Below, in pieces: positions 1,995 to 62,079 of a DNA stretch of 64,000 bases; position 1 is the stretch's first letter, and each line of letters starts with the position of its first letter. The DNA is taken from IMG/VR virus record IMGVR_UViG_3300028410_000746; one strand, 5' to 3'. This DNA is from a virus. Lineage: Duplodnaviria > Caudoviricetes. The notes beneath the pieces were generated by a model. That model saw only the letters and a program-made list of their open reading frames with translations, had not been told where the DNA came from and searched no databases. The translations under genes and the position numbers were made by a program.

Positions 1995-2453
1995 TCACCC
2001 CCAGCACACCGACTCCCAACCCTCCTTCTGGGCGCGGGCCACGTAATCTCGAATCTCGGAGACTCGACCGTGGAGGTAGCCCGCAGGCCGGAGCTGGCGA
2101 AGGACCGAAGCACCCCGCACGATCTCGCTCACGCCGTCCGAGCGGACCTCTACGCGGCGAGGACCCATCTCAACCGAACCCTGTATGGCCGGGTCCTGCT
2201 CACGGCTCAGAAACCGCATGCACGCTCTCCGGACGCGGGGGTAATCCTCCGGGCCCCAGGACCCGCCGTACTCGCTCGGCTCTCCGAGGCACTGGAGCAA
2301 CTCCAGTGCGTTGGAGTTGGACATCTGGATGTCCTCCTGAAACTCGATGCGGTCGACGCCGCTGCCGTCGCAGTGGCGGCAGGAAGGCCTGTCGCAACAC
2401 TCGAACTCCTCAATCTTAACCGGCGCATCGTTGGAAAAAAAGCTGATGGACAT
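1995..2453 (-). CDS. Hypothetical protein (CxxCxGxG motif)
   Basis: ORF behind its own promoter/leader module. Confidence 0.6.
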   Translation of the reverse strand: MSISFFSNDAPVKIEEFECCDRPSCRHCDGSGVDRIEFQEDIQMSNSNALELLQCLGEPSEYGGSWGPEDYPRVRRACMRFLSREQDPAIQGSVEMGPRRVEVRSDGVSEIVRGASVLRQLRPAGYLHGRVSEIRDYVARAQKEGWESVCWG

Positions 2454-3182: not shown

Positions 3183-3770
3183 TCAAACGTGGGGGTCCTG
3201 CTTGATGACCGCGCCGCTGAAGCCCAGGCCCGAGTAACGGATAGCCTTGATGCTATCACCCTTGGTGGCCCATCCACGCTGGCCGTTGCCCCGCTTCTGA
3301 CGTCGGGTCCAGCACTGAGCGGGGATGTCCTCAAGAGCGACGCCCTCCTCCAGGGCCTGACGCGCCGATCGGAGGTCCGCAACCCAGATCTTCTTCTGCG
3401 AGTCTACCTTGGTGATGATCGCTCCGTAGGAGTCCCCCTGGACGTAGCGGGAAATCTCCCGACCCGCCTTCAGGATCGGGACGATCCTGATGTCCCTCAG
3501 CGCCAGGAAGTTGGAGCCGACCGCTTCTGCCAGCTCCTGGAAGCCAACGTGCTTCCAGGAGCTGCTCATCCAGTCGAAGAGGACCGAGAACTCCGCCGTT
3601 CGGTGGTCCATCCCCTCTTTCTCAGCCAGGATGCGGCCAAACTCTTCAACGGCTATCTTTTGAAGGTCTCGGCTCTCAAGTTTTACCAGGAGGCCTCTGA
3701 AGGCGAAGTTCTCCCGGTCACCGGACCGGACGTCTGCGAGGAAGCTGCGCATCTCACCGTAATTCGACAT
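3183..3770 (-). CDS. Hypothetical protein
   Basis: ORF behind promoter module 3. Confidence 0.6.
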   Translation of the reverse strand: MSNYGEMRSFLADVRSGDRENFAFRGLLVKLESRDLQKIAVEEFGRILAEKEGMDHRTAEFSVLFDWMSSSWKHVGFQELAEAVGSNFLALRDIRIVPILKAGREISRYVQGDSYGAIITKVDSQKKIWVADLRSARQALEEGVALEDIPAQCWTRRQKRGNGQRGWATKGDSIKAIRYSGLGFSGAVIKQDPHV

Positions 3771-10498: not shown

Positions 10499-10640
10499 TC
10501 TGTGCCAAGAAGTCACAGGGTAGGGAACACGTAAGTATTCGGTTTTCAAAGACTTTCAGGGTTCAGTGTCAAAGAGCGTCACCCTTGGGCGACCTCTCCG
10601 ACGTCCTTATGGTAACCACACCTAAGAGGGCCTGTCAAGC
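10499..10640 (-). promoter_or_regulatory. CRISPR leader with sigma70 promoter (leader copy 1)
   Basis: TTGACA-N18-TACCAT; highly similar to 39984-40125 and 44025-44165. Confidence 0.8.
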
Positions 10641-11171
10641 GCCGCGCAACGGTCGAAACGTCAAGTTGATGCGAGGCTCAGAGACACGGGCACGCTTGGG
10701 GAGGCTGTGCTCCCACTCGCGCTGAGTCCCCGCAGGCATGACGAGAAGGCTGCCGTCCGTGAGCGCGAAGGAGAGCTTCTCCTTGTGGTCCACCTTGCGG
10801 CGCATCTTGAAGTCTCGGGCAGCTCCAAACGACAGGGAGGCGATCACCGGGTCATCCCCGAACAGCGGCTCATCGTCCGCGTGCCAGCCAATGCGGTCCG
10901 AGCCGTCCCGGTAGAGGTTGGCCAGCATCGTGGGGAGCTTGCAACCCACATGAGCCTCGACCTTCTCCTGGAGCGACTTGAGGAGAGCAGAAGGAAGCTC
11001 CCGAGCCCCCCACTGTAGGTTGGAGTACGTGTAAGAGACCGGACCGTACCACGCAGTCAAGCGAGGCTGTGGGTGCTCTTTGCCGTAGACCACAATCATG
11101 CGCTGTTCAAAGGCGAGCAGACTGCGCAGCTCCTCGAAATCCATCTCCACGAACTGCTCTATCAATTCCAT
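10635..11171 (-). CDS. alkB: 2OG-Fe(II) dioxygenase, AlkB (ALKBH2/3-like) family
   Basis: QPRLTAWYG, LANLYRDGSDRIGWHADDE, IASLSFG, WEHSLPK, RINLTFR. Confidence 0.92.
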   Translation of the reverse strand: MELIEQFVEMDFEELRSLLAFEQRMIVVYGKEHPQPRLTAWYGPVSYTYSNLQWGARELPSALLKSLQEKVEAHVGCKLPTMLANLYRDGSDRIGWHADDEPLFGDDPVIASLSFGAARDFKMRRKVDHKEKLSFALTDGSLLVMPAGTQREWEHSLPKRARVSEPRINLTFRPLRGA

Positions 11172-19741: not shown

Positions 19742-19814
19742 TAGTCACGATGGGACTCGAACCCATACACGGGGATTTAGAATCCCCTGCTCTAACCCGT
19801 TGAGCTACACGACT
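19742..19814 (-). tRNA. tRNA-Sup(CUA), amber suppressor, copy 1
   Basis: Cloverleaf; anticodon arm GGGGA-TT CTA AA-TCCCC; A73; no encoded CCA. Confidence 0.9.
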
Positions 19815-22252: not shown

Positions 22253-22322
22253 GCTCCTTGTGCGTTAGGTTGCACGAGGTATGTACCACAAGGAGATTAG
22301 GCTGTAAAAGAAAACTACGAAG

Positions 22323-22395
22323 TGGACGATGCGAGGATCGAACTCGCTACCTCCGCTGTGCAAAAGCGGCGCTCTCCCAGATGAGCTAATCGCCC
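22323..22395 (-). tRNA. tRNA-Ala(UGC)
   Basis: Cloverleaf, G3:U70, A73. Confidence 0.95.
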
Positions 22396-22459
22396 GGAAA
22401 CGGGAGGGGGGTTGCAAACGAGCCTCCGTAGAGGGCATCGCCTGCAACCCCGATATGAG

Positions 22460-22590
22460 CTGTACGAACAAGGGACTGGAAACGGAAGTTTAGCGTGCTA
22501 CCCATACACTACCCCCCGAAGGGGGCCGGGACTCGAACCCGGTCTGCCTCATTAACAGTGAGATAACCGTTTGCCATTCAGATCGTACAG
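22460..22590 (-). ncRNA. Circularly permuted tRNA-Asn(GUU)-like domain (core 22494-22563) in a conserved scaffold
   Basis: Order: anticodon arm (loop CT GTT AA), T arm, CCCCC-TTCG-GGGGG, D arm. Flanks pair. Confidence 0.75.
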
Positions 22591-22610
22591 AACATCACCC
22601 GTAAGGGTTG

Positions 22611-22740
22611 TGCGGTCAAGAGGTTAGAAGTGCTTATATATCAGATGCCTCTACCAGTTGGGCTACGTCGCTATAGGCGCGACGGCGGGGCTCGAACCCG
22701 CAACACTCCGATTCCGTTAAAGCTCTTCAAGCAGACCGCA
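22611..22740 (-). ncRNA. Circularly permuted tRNA-like domain opened in the anticodon loop (core 22641-22713)
   Basis: AA-TCGGA, variable loop, T arm, CGTCGC-GCCTATA-GCGACG, D arm, TCTGA. Flanks pair. Confidence 0.7.
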
Positions 22741-22742
22741 CA

Positions 22743-22882
22743 TACGGACCGAGGGAGTCGAACCCTCGCGTTTAGACCTCGCCAGGAGTTTTTTAGTACC
22801 TTGGGGTCGCCCGTATCTCGTCTTTCCGAGATGTCACCGCAAGAATTTTGGTCTGAGTACCTACCAACCTTGCGGAATCCGT
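22743..22882 (-). ncRNA. tRNA-like RNA with a large structured insert
   Basis: Acceptor ACGGATT/GGTCCGT plus A73; T arm GAGGG-TTCGACT-CCCTC; internal hairpins. Confidence 0.45.
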
Positions 22883-22899
22883 AGGTACCCCCCAGCGTC

Positions 22900-23717
22900 T
22901 GGTCTTGCTGGACCTCTCCAGGAGGTGCGAGGAACTCCCTGAGCATCCCGTCTCCCAACAACAATGGCAAGAGGGTTCCTCATCCTGGAGGGTGGTGTTT
23001 GAAGCTGGGTCAAGTTTGCGTAGCCAGGGTGCAAGCCACGTCTCTCAACGGGGCAAGTTTTGGATAACCCGAGCTACATCAGACCCAGCTTCAAGCTGGT
23101 CCGGCCGGAGCCGGTAGAAAGCTTCCCGGTCAAGGTAGCGTAGGAGGGTATCCCCCAGCCCAACCCAGACCCACTCTCGCAGGTAGGGCTCGACATGGGG
23201 GTTTCCAGTAACCCTGCCTACATCAGACCGGAAAGAGGTGTCGCAGATGCGGTGTGGTCGCGAAGGGAACGGAAGGGAAGGGACCATCCCCATGTGCGTG
23301 GGGAATCGATCGAGTTACCATCTCTCCCACCCGCTAGAAGCCCCCTCGGTGAAGCCCGAGACCTCCCTCCGGGTATGAACCGGAGGGTGTGCTGATTACA
23401 CCAGAGGCACCGTGTCACCTCAAGGGTAACTTCGGCAGGACCTCTCCACGCACTTTGCAGTGCCTACCTTTGCTGATATCCGCGACAGGTAGTAATCCAG
23501 TGCTCCGTTCTGGACTTGCACCAGACCTTCCCGCAGACCTCTCCACCAAAGAAGAGAGATGAGGGGCGTGCCTCTAAAGGTACTCGGCGCTTCATCGGAG
23601 GATCTAAAGACCCGTCCATTTCCGTCGCCTCGTACGCCAACACTTTCGGAACAGAACGTTCGATCAAGAGAGCGACGAGGAAGATTTTTGCGGTAATCCT
23701 CGTCAGCAGATCGAACG
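22900..23717 (-). ncRNA. Highly structured non-coding region in the tRNA operon (several scaffold copies)
   Basis: No credible ORF; many nested stems and repeated motifs. Confidence 0.55.
23280..23308 (-). repeat. Degenerate solitary type I-E-like repeat
   Basis: CGATTCCCCACGCACATGGGGATGGTCCC. Confidence 0.45.
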
Positions 23718-23720
23718 TAG

Positions 23721-23792
23721 TAGGGTCGGTGGGGATTGAACCCACGACCATCTCGGTGTAAACGAGGCGCTCTCCCACTGAGCTACGACCCT
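23721..23792 (-). tRNA. tRNA-Val(UAC)
   Basis: Cloverleaf, loop TT TAC AC, A73. Confidence 0.92.
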
Positions 23793-23877
23793 AAGAGTCT
23801 TTCGAGCAAAGAATGTGCAGTTGCCGGGGGGTATCGTTTGGGGATAACCCAGCGTTCGCGGGCAGCTCGGAAGACAG

Positions 23878-23950
23878 CAGGACGCCGGGGAATCGAACCC
23901 CGATACTCGGATTTGGAAACCAAGCGGATCAGCCATTACCTCAACGTCCC
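23878..23950 (-). tRNA. tRNA-Trp(CCA)
   Basis: Loop TT CCA AA closed by U-U; G73 and G2-C71 favour Trp over Gly. Confidence 0.75.
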
Positions 23951-23953
23951 ATC

Positions 23954-23995
23954 CGGAGTGGAGCTGGGTGCCCTGAGGGTCCCAGCTCCACTCCG
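23954..23995. repeat. 15-bp perfect inverted repeat
   Basis: CGGAGTGGAGCTGGG / CCCAGCTCCACTCCG just 5' of tRNA-Trp. Confidence 0.8.
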
Positions 23996-24164
23996 TATGC
24001 AGTGTGCCTCCTCCTGAGGGGGGAAGCCACACCGCGTGATGTGTTCATTCTCTTTACTTGTCAAAGACTCTGGGTCTGCGTCGGGCTTCCCCGTGCTGAC
24101 GTCTTCCTTTATAGGGGAGGCCCTGGGAGGCTGTCAAGCACATTCTGCAAGAGCGGACCAGAAA

Positions 24165-24237
24165 AGCGACTGGCGAGACTCGAACTCGCTATCTCCTCGT
24201 TGGAAGCGAGGTGCCCTGCCGGTTGAGCTACAGTCGC
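24165..24237 (-). tRNA. tRNA-Gly(UCC)
   Basis: Cloverleaf, C2-G71, U73. Confidence 0.95.
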
Positions 24238-24312: not shown

Positions 24313-25542
24313 TCAGGAGACCCTTCGGAACGGCACGTGAGCGGTATTGCACGCCGCTTCAACGTTGGCAATGAAGTCCGACCGTTGCTTGTTCTCCGTT
24401 CCGTTTCCGCGTCTCGGATACTCCAGGGGGCCGTTCAAGAGATACTTCGCGTTCTTGCGGCACGCGTAGTGGTTGTACGCCGCCCACAGGCCCGCGTACT
24501 TCTTCGACCGGTCCGACGTGCGACGGGAGAGGAGAGCCAGACGGCCGGGGTTCGCAGGAGGATTCTGAAGCTCCAACCGGAGTGCGTACTTGAGAGCCTC
24601 AAACGAGAAGTTGTCGTGGCCGCGCACGTGCACGTACGCGTAGACGCCCCCGCGATTACAAAAGAAGGACTGCAAGATGTCCCGCCCCTCTTCCAGGATC
24701 TCCTCAATCTCGCTGAAGATGGTGAGGATCTCCTCCTCGCTGCGGCGAGGAGGTCCGAAACCGGTCTTCGCATGACTGGTCTCGTAGCCGGAGATGTCCA
24801 ACGCCGTCATGTACGTCACCCACGTAGGGGCCCCCTCGAAGTACCCCAGCTCTTCGCGAAGCTCCGGAGTGTAGAGGGCCAAGAGACGTTGCGCATTCTT
24901 ACGCCTCTCCGGATCGCCGCCCACCATCCCTGCCTCGTACGCAATGAAGTCCATAGTGGTCCAGACAGAGCCCGTCTCGTTGAGAATTCGCAGCGACTCG
25001 ACGGGGTTTTGACCCGTCTCCAGGAAGGAGACGTACGCGTCCAGAGGCTCTCCCCGCTCCTCCAGGACCTGGAGCCTCGCATGGATGCGATGCTGGCCGT
25101 CGATCACCACGAAGGGAGCGTCGGGGTTGGGGTCCCCCTTGTAGTCCACGAGGGTGTCCTCAGGGGACAAGCCCTGCGGGTAGGGCTTCACGCACACTGA
25201 CGCGGGGACCGACGCCGACAGATCACACGTCTTCATCTTGGCGGTCAGGTTGTTGACAAGCTTCTCGTCAAGGTCCCGATTGTGTGAGGAGAACCCAAGG
25301 AGCATCGGGTCGGTGATCCGATAAGAGACCTTGTAGGGCTCCAGATCCGGGTGAGCCACCTGTGCGGGCGACACCGTAGGCGTGATCACCGTCGAAGGAA
25401 TCACTCCAGACTTGACCTTGGCCGAAGGCTTGGCGTTTTGGGCGAGCTTGGCGGACTTGGCGAGCTTGGACTCCGGACCGAGTAGCGCATCAAGGGCGAG
25501 CTGCGTGCGGCTGCCCGAAGAGTCGGACGTAGAAGACGACAT
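24313..25542 (-). CDS. ParB/Srx-like (DGQHR) domain protein
   Basis: FVVIDGQHRIHARL. Confidence 0.6.
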   Translation of the reverse strand: MSSSTSDSSGSRTQLALDALLGPESKLAKSAKLAQNAKPSAKVKSGVIPSTVITPTVSPAQVAHPDLEPYKVSYRITDPMLLGFSSHNRDLDEKLVNNLTAKMKTCDLSASVPASVCVKPYPQGLSPEDTLVDYKGDPNPDAPFVVIDGQHRIHARLQVLEERGEPLDAYVSFLETGQNPVESLRILNETGSVWTTMDFIAYEAGMVGGDPERRKNAQRLLALYTPELREELGYFEGAPTWVTYMTALDISGYETSHAKTGFGPPRRSEEEILTIFSEIEEILEEGRDILQSFFCNRGGVYAYVHVRGHDNFSFEALKYALRLELQNPPANPGRLALLSRRTSDRSKKYAGLWAAYNHYACRKNAKYLLNGPLEYPRRGNGTENKQRSDFIANVEAACNTAHVPFRRVS

Positions 25543-39983: not shown

Positions 39984-40125
39984 TCTGTGCCAAGAAGTCA
40001 CATGCGTTAGATCGCGTAAGTATTCGGTTTTCAAAGACTTTCAGGGTTCAGTGTCAAAGAGCGTCACTCTTGGGCGACCCTCTTGACGTCCTTACGGTAA
40101 CCTTGGTGAGGGAGACATGTCAAGC
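39984..40125 (-). promoter_or_regulatory. CRISPR leader with promoter (leader copy 2)
   Basis: TTGACA-N18-TACCGT; homologous to 10499-10640. Confidence 0.8.
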
Positions 40126-42789: not shown

Positions 42790-42863
42790 TGCGCCGAGTG
42801 GGGCTCGAACCCACAACACGGGGATTTAGAATCCCCTGCTCTAACCCGTTGAGCTATCGGCGC
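42790..42863 (-). tRNA. tRNA-Sup(CUA), amber suppressor, copy 2
   Basis: Perfect 7-bp acceptor GCGCCGA/TCGGCGC; same D and anticodon arms as copy 1; A73. Confidence 0.92.
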
Positions 42864-44024: not shown

Positions 44025-44165
44025 TCTGTGCCAAGAAGTCACATGAGCGGAATCACGTAAGTACTCAGTTTTCAAAGACTTCTCAGGTTCAGCGCCGTTC
44101 GGTGTCACCCTTGGGCGACCCTCTTGACGTCCGTATGGTAACCCTGAGGAGGGAAACCTGTCAAC
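44025..44165 (-). promoter_or_regulatory. CRISPR leader with promoter (leader copy 3)
   Basis: TTGACA-N18-TACCAT; homologous to the other two leaders. Confidence 0.8.
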
Positions 44166-58322: not shown

Positions 58323-58633
58323 TGCGCAAACCATGGGTGTGCCGTGACTCCCCGACCGCCGCAGTCGTCACATGGAGGATGAGAATAGAGAACCCCCTCG
58401 CCGCCACACGCGCCACACTCAAGGTCGTAGAGGACCCCTTGGTAGTCACACCTCGCGCAGCCGTCCGGATCTTCCCCGTCTCCTTCCCCTCCGCAGGCCG
58501 GACACGGAATCTCTTCCAGGAAGCCATCCCCCCGACAGACCTCGCACTCGGTCTCCAGGAGGAGATCCTTTCGGACCCCCTCCATCATACAGACCTCGCA
58601 CTCGACGAGCATTGTGGGAGGCATGGGACTCAT
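58319..58633 (-). CDS. DnaJ-type CxxCxGxG Zn-finger protein
   Basis: Multiple CxxCxGxG repeats. Confidence 0.7.
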   Translation of the reverse strand: MSPMPPTMLVECEVCMMEGVRKDLLLETECEVCRGDGFLEEIPCPACGGEGDGEDPDGCARCDYQGVLYDLECGACGGEGVLYSHPPCDDCGGRGVTAHPWFAQ

Positions 58634-61600
58634 ACAGACGGCTCCTGGACGAAGGGCTCGGTCACCGGGAGAGCCTTGGTCCAGTCACGAAGAACGTCTC
58701 GGAACACCAGCGGCGGAATCTGCTCCACGCGGTCCACCGGGTAGAACGTCATTTCGCTGAGCACCAGGGCGTCCACGTCACGCAGGTCCTTGGTACACTG
58801 CGAGGGCATGATGACCTCACGGATGCCCGCGCGATGCGCGGCGATGACCTTCTCCTTGATGCCGCCGACCGGGAGCACCTGACCCGTGAGCGTAATCTCA
58901 CCGGTCATGGCCACCTCTCGGCGCAGCTTGAGCCCCGCGAAGCGAGAGAGCAAGGCGCTGAACATCGTGATGCCTGCGGAGGGACCATCCTTGGGGATGG
59001 CGCCAGCCGGCACGTGGATGTGAAGGTCGTGCGACTTGATCATGTTGGTGTCTACTCCATACAGATCGCCATGCGCACGCAGGTAGCTCAGGGCAGCCCG
59101 GACAGACTCCTTCATGACGTCTCCGAGCTGGCCCGTCAGCGTCACCTCACCCTTACCCCCTTTCATCGCCTGCACCTCAATGAAGAGGATGTCTCCACCT
59201 ACCGCCGTCCAGGCCAAGCCCGTTGCCACGCCCTCCTGATCCTCACGCTGCGACACCTCCGAGATGTACCGAACGGGACCCAGCGCCTTCTCGACCCGCC
59301 CCATGTCCAGGGGGAACACCGCACCGAGACGCTCAGCCTCCGGAAGCTTGACGACATCCACAGCGATAGAGCGGCACAGGTCTCCCAGCCTACGGTTCAG
59401 GCTACGGACGCCCGCCTCACGGGTGTACTTGTCCACCACGTGGTGGACCACCCCATCCGCGACCTCGATCTGGTCGGGCCCCAGACCGTGGGCGGCTACC
59501 TGCTTGGGGAAGAGATAGCGAGTCGCGATCTCATTCTTCTCGAACATCGTGTAGCTGGGGACCTCCAGGATCTCCATACGGTCACGCAGCGGAGCCGAGA
59601 TCGTATCCAACCGGTTGGCCGTGGCGATGAAGAGGACCTTGGACAGGTCAAGGTCTATCTCCAGGTAGTGGTCGTTGAACGTCGAGTTCTGAGCCGGATC
59701 AAGAACCTCCAGGAACGCGGCGGCGGGGTCGCCTCGGAAGTCCGAGCCCACCTTGTCGATCTCGTCCAGGAGGATGACCGGGTTCATCGTGCCGGCCTTC
59801 TGAAGCGCTCGAACGATGCGGCCCGGCATGGCGCCCACATAGGTACGACGGTGACCACGGATCTCGGACTCGTCGTGCATACCTCCAAGGGAGATGCGCG
59901 CGAACTTGCGGCCCATCGTCCGGGCAATGGACTTGGCGATGGACGTGTTATGCGTCACAATCACGTCATCAGTGATGTAAAGAGAATCAGGAGCAGAGAC
60001 CTTGATGCACTGAGTCTCCTTGACACCTACCGCTACGATATCAGAGATGAACCTCTTGGGAGCGTACTTACTCTTGGAGACCCACCGCTGAGCTTTGGCG
60101 TCACACCAGAAGGGACACTGACCCGCCGACATTGAGACCGTCACGTTGTACGCCAGACGACCCGAACGCCTCTCCCCATCAACCGTATATGACGGCTTTT
60201 TCATCGTCACCCGTGTCACCCCCCCAAGCGACCGGACCAACCACTGCACGTCATCACACAATCGCGTCGACGTCGTACAAAAAGAAACCCTACAACCCGT
60301 CGCGTCTACAGTACCGCCAGTGTCCATCAAGCCCTGCAAAAGAGCGAGCCTCTGCTCTACCGAGCCGTAAAGGTACACATAAGGTACATGCTTTTCGTAC
60401 GAGTAGAGCCCCGTAAGTTCCAGAGCATCCAGCTCCACCTGCAACGCGTCCCGTACAGACCCCTTTCGCCCTGCGGTCAAACGATAGTCACAGGTCTCCG
60501 ACGCTTGCTTGCGCATCCGAACCTCCCCCGGCAAGGCGGCAGCTACGCGTGCGCAAATATCACCCTCTGGGTTTGAAAAACCAACGGAAGCTCCCGTAAG
60601 GCCTCCATCTCCCAAGAGCGCCCCCAAGAGGTACGGGTCAAGGGGTACGGACTTTTCCGCAAACTCCAAGGGCTGGGTCAGAGGGATAGAATGGTTGCGG
60701 CGAGCGTCCGAGCCGTACCGAAGCGTCTCTCGGATTTGCTCCAGAGACTTCACCGACCCCTCACGGGAAGCCTTCCGATCGAGGTCGGTATGCGTGTACC
60801 ACAAGTGCTCGTCGCAACACTCTGTTGATGAGCCGTCTTGAAACTCCACACGATACACCGGCCGCGTGCCTTGAGGGAACGCGCCCTCCACGTGATGAAC
60901 GCCCCCGTCCGCACCCATGACCGCATCACCTACCGCAAGCGTACCCATCGCAACCCAACCCTTCGGGGTCAACACCCGCGCATCCAAAGGCTGCGCCTTG
61001 CCCACACCGGGAGGGCCCACGAAGCACAGGATCGGGCCGTTCATGTCCTGCTTGAGCGCCTGAACAGCCAGATGCTCGACCACCCTTCGCTTCACCTTCT
61101 CCAGGCCGTAGTGGTCCGCGTCGAGCACATCCTCCGCGCGGACGACATCCAGGTTGTCCTCGCTCTCGACGCCCCACGGCACATCGAGCATCTGCTGGAT
61201 GTAGTTGAGCGTCACCGAATACTCGGAGCTGGCCGGCTGCATCGCGTCGAGTCGACGATGCTGCTTCAGGACCGCAGCCTCCACCTCCTCAGGCATGTCT
61301 GCCTCCTGAATACGCTCAAGCAGCTCCTCCGTCTCGGAGATGTCCTCACCGAGCTGGTCCTTGATGACCTTGAGCTGCTGGCGAAGGATGTACTCACGCT
61401 GAATAGACTTGCTGCGCTCCTGGAGCGACTGGTTGATCTCACCCGCCAGCTCCTGGCGCGCGATACGCTCCCCCAGGATGCGCAGACACCGAGACGCGCG
61501 CTCCGTGATGTTCGGCTCCAGGTAGAGAGCCAACAGGTCCTCATCCTCGAAGCGGGGCGCGAGCATGTCTGTAAGGTCTGAGAGGGAGCCCACAGCACGC

Positions 61601-62079
61601 ACGCGCTCGAACTCCTGCTCGGGAGCGTCCGGATCGTCTCCCAGGACCTGAAGCGTCTTCTCCTGAAGCGCCTCGAACAGCGCTTCATTGTACTCCGCCT
61701 CCTTGTCGAACTCCGGTCCAATGACCTCGAAGTGACCCATCAACGGCGCGGAGGCATCCTCCGGAATCTCAAGATCCAGGAGCCTCAGCCTCACCTCCCC
61801 GGAAGAAATGACCGTATAGTCGTTCGCGTTCGGGTTCGGGATGATCTTGATGCAGGACACCAGGGTCGCGATCTCGTGGACCTCATCCATCGAGGACAGC
61901 GTGAGCACGTCCGGAGACTTCTGAAGCACGACCGCGATCTTGAAAGGCGCCGGCGAGTCTGCACCCTCAATGACCGCCAGGGAGCGTGCTCGACCGACCC
62001 GAACAGGGATCATCTGTAGCGGGAAAAGAGGGTTCTCGCGCATGGCGATCACGGGAAGGTACAGGGTGTCAGCGCTCAT
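58630..62079 (-). CDS. lon: ATP-dependent Lon protease containing an intein
   Basis: LON N-domain, GPPGVGK|T, LLDEIDK, DGPSAG catalytic Ser, IGGIKEK-type VGGIKEK. Confidence 0.97.
59947..60996 (-). mobile_element. Class-3 intein (350 aa) with a LAGLIDADG domain in the Lon P-loop
   Basis: Starts AQPLD, ends VTHN before Thr+1; WCT signature (HLW, TQC, VTHN). Confidence 0.92.

Follow-up and report, generated by a model that had tools for sequence, protein, structure and literature searches.

Six probable Y RNA-like genes in a tRNA-interleaved operon of a lake-water phage

A 64,000-nucleotide stretch of viral DNA (IMG/VR record IMGVR_UViG_3300028410_000746; Duplodnaviria, Caudoviricetes), hereafter the window, carries six copies of a structured RNA element, c1–c6, on its minus strand. 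The copies are located at 22460–22590 (c1), 22610–22741 (c2), 23001–23092 (c3), 23122–23235 (c4), 23657–23717 (c5) and 23798–23874 (c6), within a few bases of the positions that an earlier note on this DNA had given for a six-copy repeat. c1–c6 are very probably paralogous genes of the Y RNA-like (Yrl) family, in which c1 and c2 would be YrlA-type RNAs with a tRNA-like module, c3–c6 would be YrlB-type hairpins and all six would belong to one tRNA-interleaved operon. Y RNAs are small RNAs whose usual partner is Ro60, a ring-shaped protein. The Yrl family itself is already known, and the array replaces the ribozyme reading of the earlier note with this known family. The unusual feature is the arrangement of six tandem paralogues in a single tRNA-punctuated operon, apart from any Ro60 gene found in the 108 kb inspected.

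In each of the six RNAs, the 5′ and 3′ ends pair with each other and close the folded helix. The copies have in common a covarying closing helix, a 5′ box (box A) with the sequence GNC-U-GA/C, a GGUUAYC box (box B) and a 3′ CUU-G. The closing stems form 9–10 of 10 pairs and contain compensatory changes between copies, with both-sided changes at seven of the ten outer-stem positions among the paralogues. Cognate strands of the outer stems form 9.5 of 10 pairs, compared with 6.3 of 10 for strands combined across copies, and the stem covariation that had been claimed for the repeat is borne out by these values. The pair counts were made by script; a MAFFT alignment of the six copies misplaced the 5′ boxes. 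A scaffold descriptor (8-bp stem ending in C, TG[AC], 30–140 nt, CTT, and G with the complementary strand) was scanned over the window and yielded five perfect matches, compared with 0.66 expected from 300 Markov shuffles. Four of the five matches are located within 1.5 kb on one strand, and the shuffles (n = 300) never exceeded two. The fifth match (11051–11127) is found inside an AlkB-like open reading frame (ORF) and is taken as chance.

The family assignment is derived from a comparison with RNAs encoded beside Ro60 (TROVE) genes. RNAs were sought in the intergenic DNA flanking Ro60 in seven actinophages and Mycobacteroides franklinii, and one to three RNAs were found on the Ro60 strand of every actinophage and Mycobacteroides locus examined. 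These RNAs present box A, with the sequence G-N-C-(C/U)-G-A, and box B, with the sequence (C)GGUUAYC, at a fixed distance, and 13 RNAs from seven Ro60 loci form an ungapped 45-column alignment that includes both boxes. A covariance model (R2) was constructed from eight Ro60-adjacent YrlA-type RNAs (one each from phages Sham, BoomerJR, Farewell, I3 and Forza, two from Magritte and one from M. franklinii), and no window sequence was used in it. With R2, c1 obtains a full-length match of 57.5 bits (E 6e-18), and c2 scores 31.4 bits (E 4e-9). Moreover, c1 aligns end to end with the RNAs of Sham, BoomerJR, Magritte, Farewell and I3, including the hairpin that follows box B and the UAAAC box. The Rfam YrlA model (RF02553) matches c2 at 33.2 bits and c1 at 27.1 bits, both over the full model. 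As a calibration, the same model assigns 36.1 bits to the I3 YrlA located 190 nt upstream of the Ro60 gene, 48.7 bits to the M. franklinii YrlA upstream of rsr, and at most 23 bits to tRNA–tRNA junctions in two tRNA-rich phages.

c1 and c2 display the tRNA-like order of YrlA, in which a T arm, a loop-closed acceptor stem, a UA linker and a D arm are nested in the closing stem without a free CCA. The closed acceptor stem and UA linker described for YrlA (bioRxiv 10.1101/312249) are present in both RNAs. In c1, box A (GAUC-UGAAUG) is followed by box B (CGGUUAUC), an anticodon-arm-like hairpin with the loop CUGUUAA, the T arm, a UUCG-capped 5-bp acceptor stem, UA, the D arm and UAAAC. c2 consists of a GGUC-UGC closing helix, an anticodon-stem-like helix, the T arm, an acceptor stem closed by GCCUAUA, UA and the D arm. 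The tRNA-like module is found only in these two copies and is absent from c3–c6, as in YrlB-type RNAs; the earlier note was correct in reporting two copies with permuted tRNA parts and four without.

The same order of parts would be expected if c1 and c2 were permuted tRNA genes whose precursors, after cleavage in the acceptor loop, mature to split or circularised working tRNAs, as in algae. In both RNAs, the 3′ half precedes the 5′ half, and the acceptor loop of c2 starts with GCC. In addition, the YrlA of Mycobacterium smegmatis is cut by RNase P and gains CCA in vivo (PMC4201824). Functional permuted tRNAs are nevertheless unlikely here, and the analysis gives this explanation a very slim chance. 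The acceptor stem of c1 is UUCG-capped and only 5 bp long, that of c2 reaches only 6 bp, CCA is not encoded, and c2 has no anticodon loop. Four copies share the scaffold without any tRNA part, and c1 matches the Ro60-linked YrlAs at 57.5 bits. Descent of c1 from the tRNA-Asn of the phage was also considered and rejected, given that un-permuted c1 is not specifically similar to that tRNA.

The two boxes connect the hairpin-type copies to the Ro60-linked RNAs. The stretch that spans both boxes reads GGUCUGAUGUAGCUCGGGUUAUCCAAAAC in c3, AGGCUGAUGAUUUCUGGUUAUC in Magritte and GGCCGAAGGCUCGUCGGUUAUCAAC in I3. The C-UGA-(A/U)G variant of box A in c1, c3 and c4 is also observed in three Ro60-adjacent RNAs of Magritte. 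A sequence-only model (R1) of the box regions of the 13 Ro60-linked RNAs ranks c3 and c1 as the top two among 128,000 positions. c3, c4 and c5 have the layout of the Magritte RNA designated Magritte_c, which consists of a lower stem, UGAUG, an upper stem, a UUAUC loop edge, a pyrimidine-rich 3′ bulge and the lower stem again. The inner motif GGTTATC..AAAC, which had been described as part of the repeated scaffold, is present in c1, c3 and c6 and is degenerate in c4 (GGGTTACT), c5 (GGATTACC) and c2 (GCTTTAAC). This motif corresponds to box B and the UAAAC box of the Yrl family because c1 and c3–c5 align with the Ro60-adjacent RNAs.

Y RNAs are used here as defined in the literature, where the Ro60-contact motif is given as GNCGAAN0-1G for bacteria and as GGUCCGA for vertebrates (PMC4201824). 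The literal bacterial motif is absent from the array: the c1 sequence GAUC-U-GAAUG is that motif with one inserted U, an interruption that distinguishes the array from the YrlA RNAs of RF02553. The GGUCUGA sequence of c3 and c4 matches six of the seven positions of the vertebrate motif, and c2, c5 and c6 contain UGC.

Conserved unpaired bases between covarying stems had led the earlier note to propose a ribozyme with self-cleaving or ligating activity, or a processing signal through which an inserted cargo RNA is displayed or released. The part of that proposal in which a protein recognises an element of conserved unpaired bases and variable stems fits the array, and the conserved bases coincide with the Ro60-contact box and the second box of Yrl RNAs that lie beside Ro60 in other phages. 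The ribozyme and cargo part is not supported. An Rfam check, which the earlier note had suggested, matched YrlA for c1 and c2 and a nematode RNA family for c3 and c4, all below threshold, and no ribozyme family at any threshold (E up to 10). A self-cleaving ribozyme is without support on this basis, together with the finding that every conserved base maps to boxes common to Ro60-adjacent Y RNAs. The tRNA core regarded as cargo is the standard built-in tRNA-like module of YrlA, and the position of the insert varies between copies, falling between UUAUC and AAAC in c1 and after AAAC in c3 and c4. The RNAs thus match a known family with another role, the Y RNA-like family, an outcome that had been named in advance as one that would refute the proposal. 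A ribozyme or cargo-releasing element is extremely improbable.

The hairpin-type copies differ in their apical parts. c3 has the order GGGUC-UGA-UGUAGC-UCGGGUUAUCCAAAAC...GCUACG-CAAACUU-GACCC and is the top R1 match in the whole window. Its best Rfam match is the nematode stem-bulge RNA (sbRNA) family RF01656 (ceN72-3_ceN74-2), which it matches over the full length at 22.8 bits (E 0.013 in a 245-nt search). c4 carries a long apical hairpin in the order GGUC-UGA-UGUAGG...GGGUUACUGGAAAC...CCUACG-CUACCUU-GACC, and its best Rfam match is likewise RF01656 (18.5 bits, full length). c5 is a minimal hairpin (GAUC-UGC-UGACGAGGA-UUACCGCAAAAAUC-UUCCUCGUCG-CUCUCUU-GAUC) with a folding energy of −26.8 kcal/mol and 10 of 10 outer-stem pairs. 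Of the six copies, c6 diverges most, with GAGC-UGC as box A, GGGUUAUCCCCAAAC as box B and CUUU-G on the 3′ side, and no Rfam match was obtained for it. The descriptions of c3–c6 are based on their folds and, for c3 and c4, the Rfam matches; c4, c5 and c6 were also placed by alignment, c6 with the Ro60-linked YrlB-type RNAs, and c6 additionally by its stem pairs. No match to the Y_RNA family RF00019 was reported at E up to 10.

Nematode sbRNAs are worm homologues of Y RNAs. The array shares with metazoan Y RNAs and sbRNAs a lower stem ending in GGUC, a bulged pyrimidine, GA or GG, an upper stem, a loop with (G)GGUUAUC at its 5′ edge and a 3′ strand that carries ACUUGACC. The lower stem of the array RNAs resembles that of animal Y RNAs, with a bulged pyrimidine, GA over UU and CUUGACC, and the GGUCUGA sequence of c3 and c4 compares with GGUCCGA at the vertebrate Ro60 contact (PMC4201824, PMC4450293, PMC4726728). 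UUAUC, contained in box B, is a hallmark of nematode sbRNAs (PMC4450293). Box B is present at every actinophage and Mycobacteroides Ro60 locus examined, and GGUUAYC is conserved in nematode sbRNAs and throughout the Ro60-adjacent actinophage RNAs inspected. No open-access paper found notes box B for bacterial Y RNAs. Unlike nematode sbRNAs, the array RNAs lack a U-tail and a Pol III context; sbRNAs function in DNA replication and are not known to partner Ro60. The resemblance could reflect convergence on a protein-binding shape.

Several observations weigh against the assignment of c1–c6 to the Yrl family. The R2 score of c2 (31.4 bits) lies just above that of the top junction artefact in the window, a tandem tRNA-Thr/tRNA-Leu (27.9 bits). 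R1 is a short model, and its E-values (0.63 and 1.1) are correspondingly weak. c1 and c2 score below the RF02553 gathering threshold of 69 bits, as do the I3 and M. franklinii YrlAs, and c3 and c4 score below the RF01656 gathering threshold of 38 bits. c5 and c6 are assigned solely through their paralogy with c3 and c4. The Y RNAs published for bacteria and phages are encoded at most 4 kb from Ro60, and the operational definition of a Y RNA requires a Ro60 (TROVE) gene on its own strand at a distance of ∼4 kb or less (Chen et al. 2014, PMC4201824). The array differs in this respect: PF05731 (TROVE/Ro60) has no match among window ORFs of at least 150 aa, and no TROVE gene is present among the called genes of 108 kb (29%) of a 373-kb contig that contains the window, so that a Ro60 gene was found neither within about 4 kb of the array nor elsewhere in the region covered. 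The contig was inspected gene by gene at 352255–373477 and 1–87204, and the inspected flanks of the array measure 40 and 67 kb. Among the orphan ORFs, the three largest appear to encode ParB-like, Zn-ribbon and helix-turn-helix proteins. The sequencing runs that carry the stretch are DNA-only lake-water metagenomes, and RNA runs were not found. Finally, variants or orthologous arrays that would allow independent covariation analysis were found neither in IMG/VR and GTDB nor in the assemblies and runs. The array sequence is identical in three assemblies and three lake-water runs, and an exact 28-mer of c3 is unmatched in IMG/VR. A blastn search of the operon against 50,697 phage records returned tRNAs only. 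Scans with c3-type patterns gave 23 matches in IMG/VR and 7 in GTDB species genomes, a result that is essentially chance given that the stems do not extend; only one of these genomes has a TROVE gene, and its pattern match falls outside the TROVE locus (∼1.5 kb either side). Judged by sequence and structure, c1–c6 would nevertheless pass for ordinary Y RNA-like members, while standing beyond the synteny distance and beneath the Rfam thresholds.

The distance from Ro60 also bears on a second explanation, in which the array RNAs are Ro60-independent tRNA mimics or decoys of Y RNA descent, or sequester host Rsr rather than serving a phage Ro60. In one variant, the array would act during infection as a sink for host nucleases that target tRNAs, for tRNA-modifying enzymes or for RNase P. 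Such a role would agree with the placement of the array in a phage tRNA cluster and with the lack of a Ro60 gene in the flanks inspected (40 and 67 kb). Moreover, C. elegans sbRNAs with the same box layout were not recovered in Ro60 immunoprecipitates (PMC4726728). The anticodon-arm-like hairpin of c1, with its canonical 7-nt loop CUGUUAA, could also be read in this way, but the equivalent hairpin after box B is found in the Ro60-adjacent YrlAs of Sham, BoomerJR and Magritte and is therefore no special decoy feature. Box A, which forms the Ro60-contact strand, is kept in all six copies, which would be unexpected had Ro60 binding been lost, and the TROVE inspection covered 29% of the genome. 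Decoys or Rsr sponges are rather unlikely. In the favoured assignment to the Yrl family, Ro60 could be encoded elsewhere in the genome or supplied by the host.

The RNA genes are located in a protein-free segment of ∼1.9 kb (22322–24237), all on the minus strand. In transcript order, the segment starts with tRNA-Gly, a promoter-like site, tRNA-Trp, c6, tRNA-Val, c5 and a 420-nt structured segment, and continues with c4, c3, a long hairpin, a tRNA-like RNA with a large insert, c2, c1, a further hairpin and tRNA-Ala. tRNA-Trp(CCA) (23877–23950) was identified by ARAGORN and by the Rfam tRNA model (34.9 bits), and its 3′ end abuts c6. tRNA-Val(UAC) (23720–23792; ARAGORN, Rfam 67.3 bits) is positioned between c6 and c5, and tRNA-Ala(UGC) (22322–22395; ARAGORN, Rfam 59.9 bits) is the last gene of the operon. 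The tRNA-like RNA (22742–22883) has a 7-bp acceptor stem and a canonical T arm with ∼110 nt between them. ARAGORN with the -i option reads it as tRNA-Ala(GGC) with a 64-nt intron; the Rfam tRNA model gives no match. The structured segment between c5 and c4 (23236–23656) has a minimum free energy of −182 kcal/mol (z −3.2 relative to shuffles), and the long hairpin between c3 and the tRNA-like RNA (22884–23000) was identified from the fold of 22742–23003 (z −3.1). No Rfam family was matched by either of these two elements. The sequence GGAGAGGUC recurs three times in these structured segments (23236–23656 and 22884–23000).

The promoter-like site (24098–24137), with the sequence TTGACA-N18-TATAAA-GGAAGACGTC, is located ∼150 nt upstream of tRNA-Trp on the minus strand and would serve as a promoter by its resemblance to one. 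The pattern TTGACA-N24-34-GACGTC occurs four times, always on the minus strand and always between genes, compared with 0.17 occurrences expected. The recurrent element is probably a phage promoter class with a conserved start region. In its longer form, TTGACA-N18-(TACCAT/TATAAA)-A/GGGA(A)GACGTC, the element is found at 10600–10638, 24098–24137, 40085–40123 and 44126–44164, all on the minus strand.

The RNAs are closely packed with the tRNAs. c6 follows tRNA-Trp and c5 follows tRNA-Val directly, with spacers of 1–3 nt; c2 abuts the end of the tRNA-like RNA, and 4 nt separate the end of c6 from tRNA-Val. A single precursor may be transcribed from the promoter-like site (24137–24098), and release of the RNAs from it by tRNA-end enzymes would be the simplest route because of the 1–4 nt spacings. 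RNase P and tRNA 3′-end enzymes would cut at the flanking tRNAs and free the Y RNAs with their ends locked in the closing helix. A single precursor is likewise cleaved to yield both YrlA and YrlB in M. smegmatis (PMC4201824).

Homology further predicts that c1–c6 bind Ro60. The 5′ strand GNC-U-GA, held in a bulged helix closed by CUU-G, would dock onto the Ro60/Rsr ring, and the differing apical modules (tRNA-like, long hairpin or small loop) may each tether or gate a partner of their own, for example PNPase or a tRNA-binding enzyme, which would give one Ro60 protein several specificities. Docking of Ro60 on box A and recruitment of partners by apical modules have precedent in the family (PMC4201824, PMC4726728, PMC12135203).

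The closest known relatives are the Ro60-adjacent YrlA and YrlB RNAs of Mycobacteroides, Mycobacterium and the actinophages Sham and BoomerJR (Streptomyces), Magritte (Microbacterium), I3 and Farewell (Mycobacterium) and Forza (Gordonia). These RNAs share with the array box A (GNC-(C/U)-GA), box B (GGUUAYC, 8–10 nt further on) and the UAAAC box, and their YrlA members share the hairpin after box B, the T arm, the closed acceptor stem, UA and the D arm. The actinophage RNAs likewise form tandem sets of two or three RNAs of two types in association with tRNA clusters: they lie ∼1.5 kb or less from Ro60, often within tRNA clusters, the Ro60 genes themselves are in or beside such clusters, and the Forza Y RNAs are between tRNAs. 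Two Y RNAs per species have been described (PMC4201824, PMC12135203); three RNAs are found beside Ro60 in I3 and in Magritte. Unlike the actinophage loci, the array contains six copies and has no Ro60 gene in the flanks inspected. The spacing from box A to box B is one nucleotide longer in the array than in actinophage Yrl RNAs, and the 3′ side has a conserved CUU-G, whereas the actinophage RNAs have ...CAU-GUC or CAC-GCC. The host and phage lineage are unrelated to the actinophages, the array belonging to a 373-kb lake megaphage whose neighbouring proteins are without homologues.

With the Salmonella-type YrlA of RF02553, the array shares a Ro60-binding closing stem and a tRNA-like effector module with a closed acceptor stem. 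c1 contains an anticodon-arm-like hairpin, whereas Salmonella YrlA is described as lacking an anticodon loop (PMC4201824; bioRxiv 10.1101/312249). The Thermus phage phiLo also encodes a Yrl set, Yrl1 and Yrl2, together with a phage Ro60, for which recruitment of host PNPase has been proposed (PMC12135203). The two phiLo RNAs are directly upstream of the phage's own Ro60 gene (PMC12135203), and the array is likened to them by description, not by sequence. In the jumbo Agrobacterium phage Atu_ph07, the 650-nt gap that follows the Ro60 gene contains no recognisable Y RNA. A TROVE gene is absent from Caulobacter phage CcrBL9, where the YrlA model matched only tRNA-junction artefacts.

Existing annotations overlap several of the actinophage RNAs. 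In Sham (L068, 737–798), a 62-nt feature annotated as tRNA-Ser(cga) overlaps the YrlA and is apparently mislabelled, and in I3 (L056, 2556–2970), two small coding sequences annotated as hypothetical proteins overlap the three Y RNAs upstream of Ro60, again an apparent mislabel. In Forza (L065, 4059–4400), two RNAs with boxes A and B are flanked by annotated tRNAs; the Ro60 gene and a tmRNA are ∼1 kb upstream of them, and one Y RNA-like RNA overlaps a 68-nt feature annotated as tRNA-Gln.

The window DNA is also present in the lake-metagenome contig k141_181878 of ENA (ERZ27315555; 373,477 bp) and in JGI and Logan contigs, with 100% identity over the RNA region. The ENA contig is circularly permuted relative to the window, such that window position 3282 corresponds to contig position 1 and window positions 1995–2453 are found at the far end of the contig; the genome is therefore circular or terminally redundant. 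The gene content, with 15–16 tRNAs, an intein-bearing Lon protease, GyrB, PTH2, AlkB, RNase T, Cpn60 and tail-fibre-like giant proteins, suggests a very large phage. Genes related to RNA metabolism are numerous (PTH2, an AlkB-like protein, two RNase T, an Rv2179c-like exonuclease, CYTH, Macro, NUDIX and DHH). Two tRNAs with a CUA anticodon (amber suppressors) are located at 19742–19814 and 42790–42863 on the minus strand, and most long ORFs are open under the standard code. The Lon protease (1149 aa; 58630–62079, minus strand) contains a homing-endonuclease/LAGLIDADG segment at approximately residues 565–650 that is probably an intein. A gene for a 409-aa protein (24313–25542, minus strand) is located just upstream of the RNA operon. 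The protein has no relative in IMG/VR and, among 5.8 billion proteins, matches only itself; its Atlas model resembles phage proteins with a ParB/Srx N-terminal domain (template modelling score, TM 0.56).

A further reading, which is possible but doubtful, treats the six genes as an orphan Y RNA array. The phage would have no Ro60 of its own, and the RNAs would capture or re-program the Rsr/PNPase decay machinery of the host or act as tRNA-like decoys. The same reading would include a deep link through a two-box core, the Ro60-contact helix and GGUUAUC at a fixed distance, common to the array, the actinophage Yrl RNAs and the sbRNAs. To our knowledge, reviews regard bacterial and animal Y RNAs as not homologous. 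If the reading is true, the two-box core would connect the bacterial with the animal Y RNAs, either through deep common descent or through a second protein-binding site of ancient date.

To date, nearly all Y RNAs of bacteria and phages have come from searches beside Ro60 genes. The array indicates that Y RNAs may be recognised from sequence and structure alone, far from a Ro60 gene and possibly without one. GGUUAYC at a fixed distance from the Ro60-contact box would provide a simple search key for further members and is a candidate second binding site. In the array, one docking helix is combined with graded apical modules, ranging from a tRNA-like module with an anticodon-like hairpin and a tRNA-like module without it to long hairpins and a minimal loop. 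This graded series would be suited to asking what the effector module of a Y RNA such as YrlA recruits.

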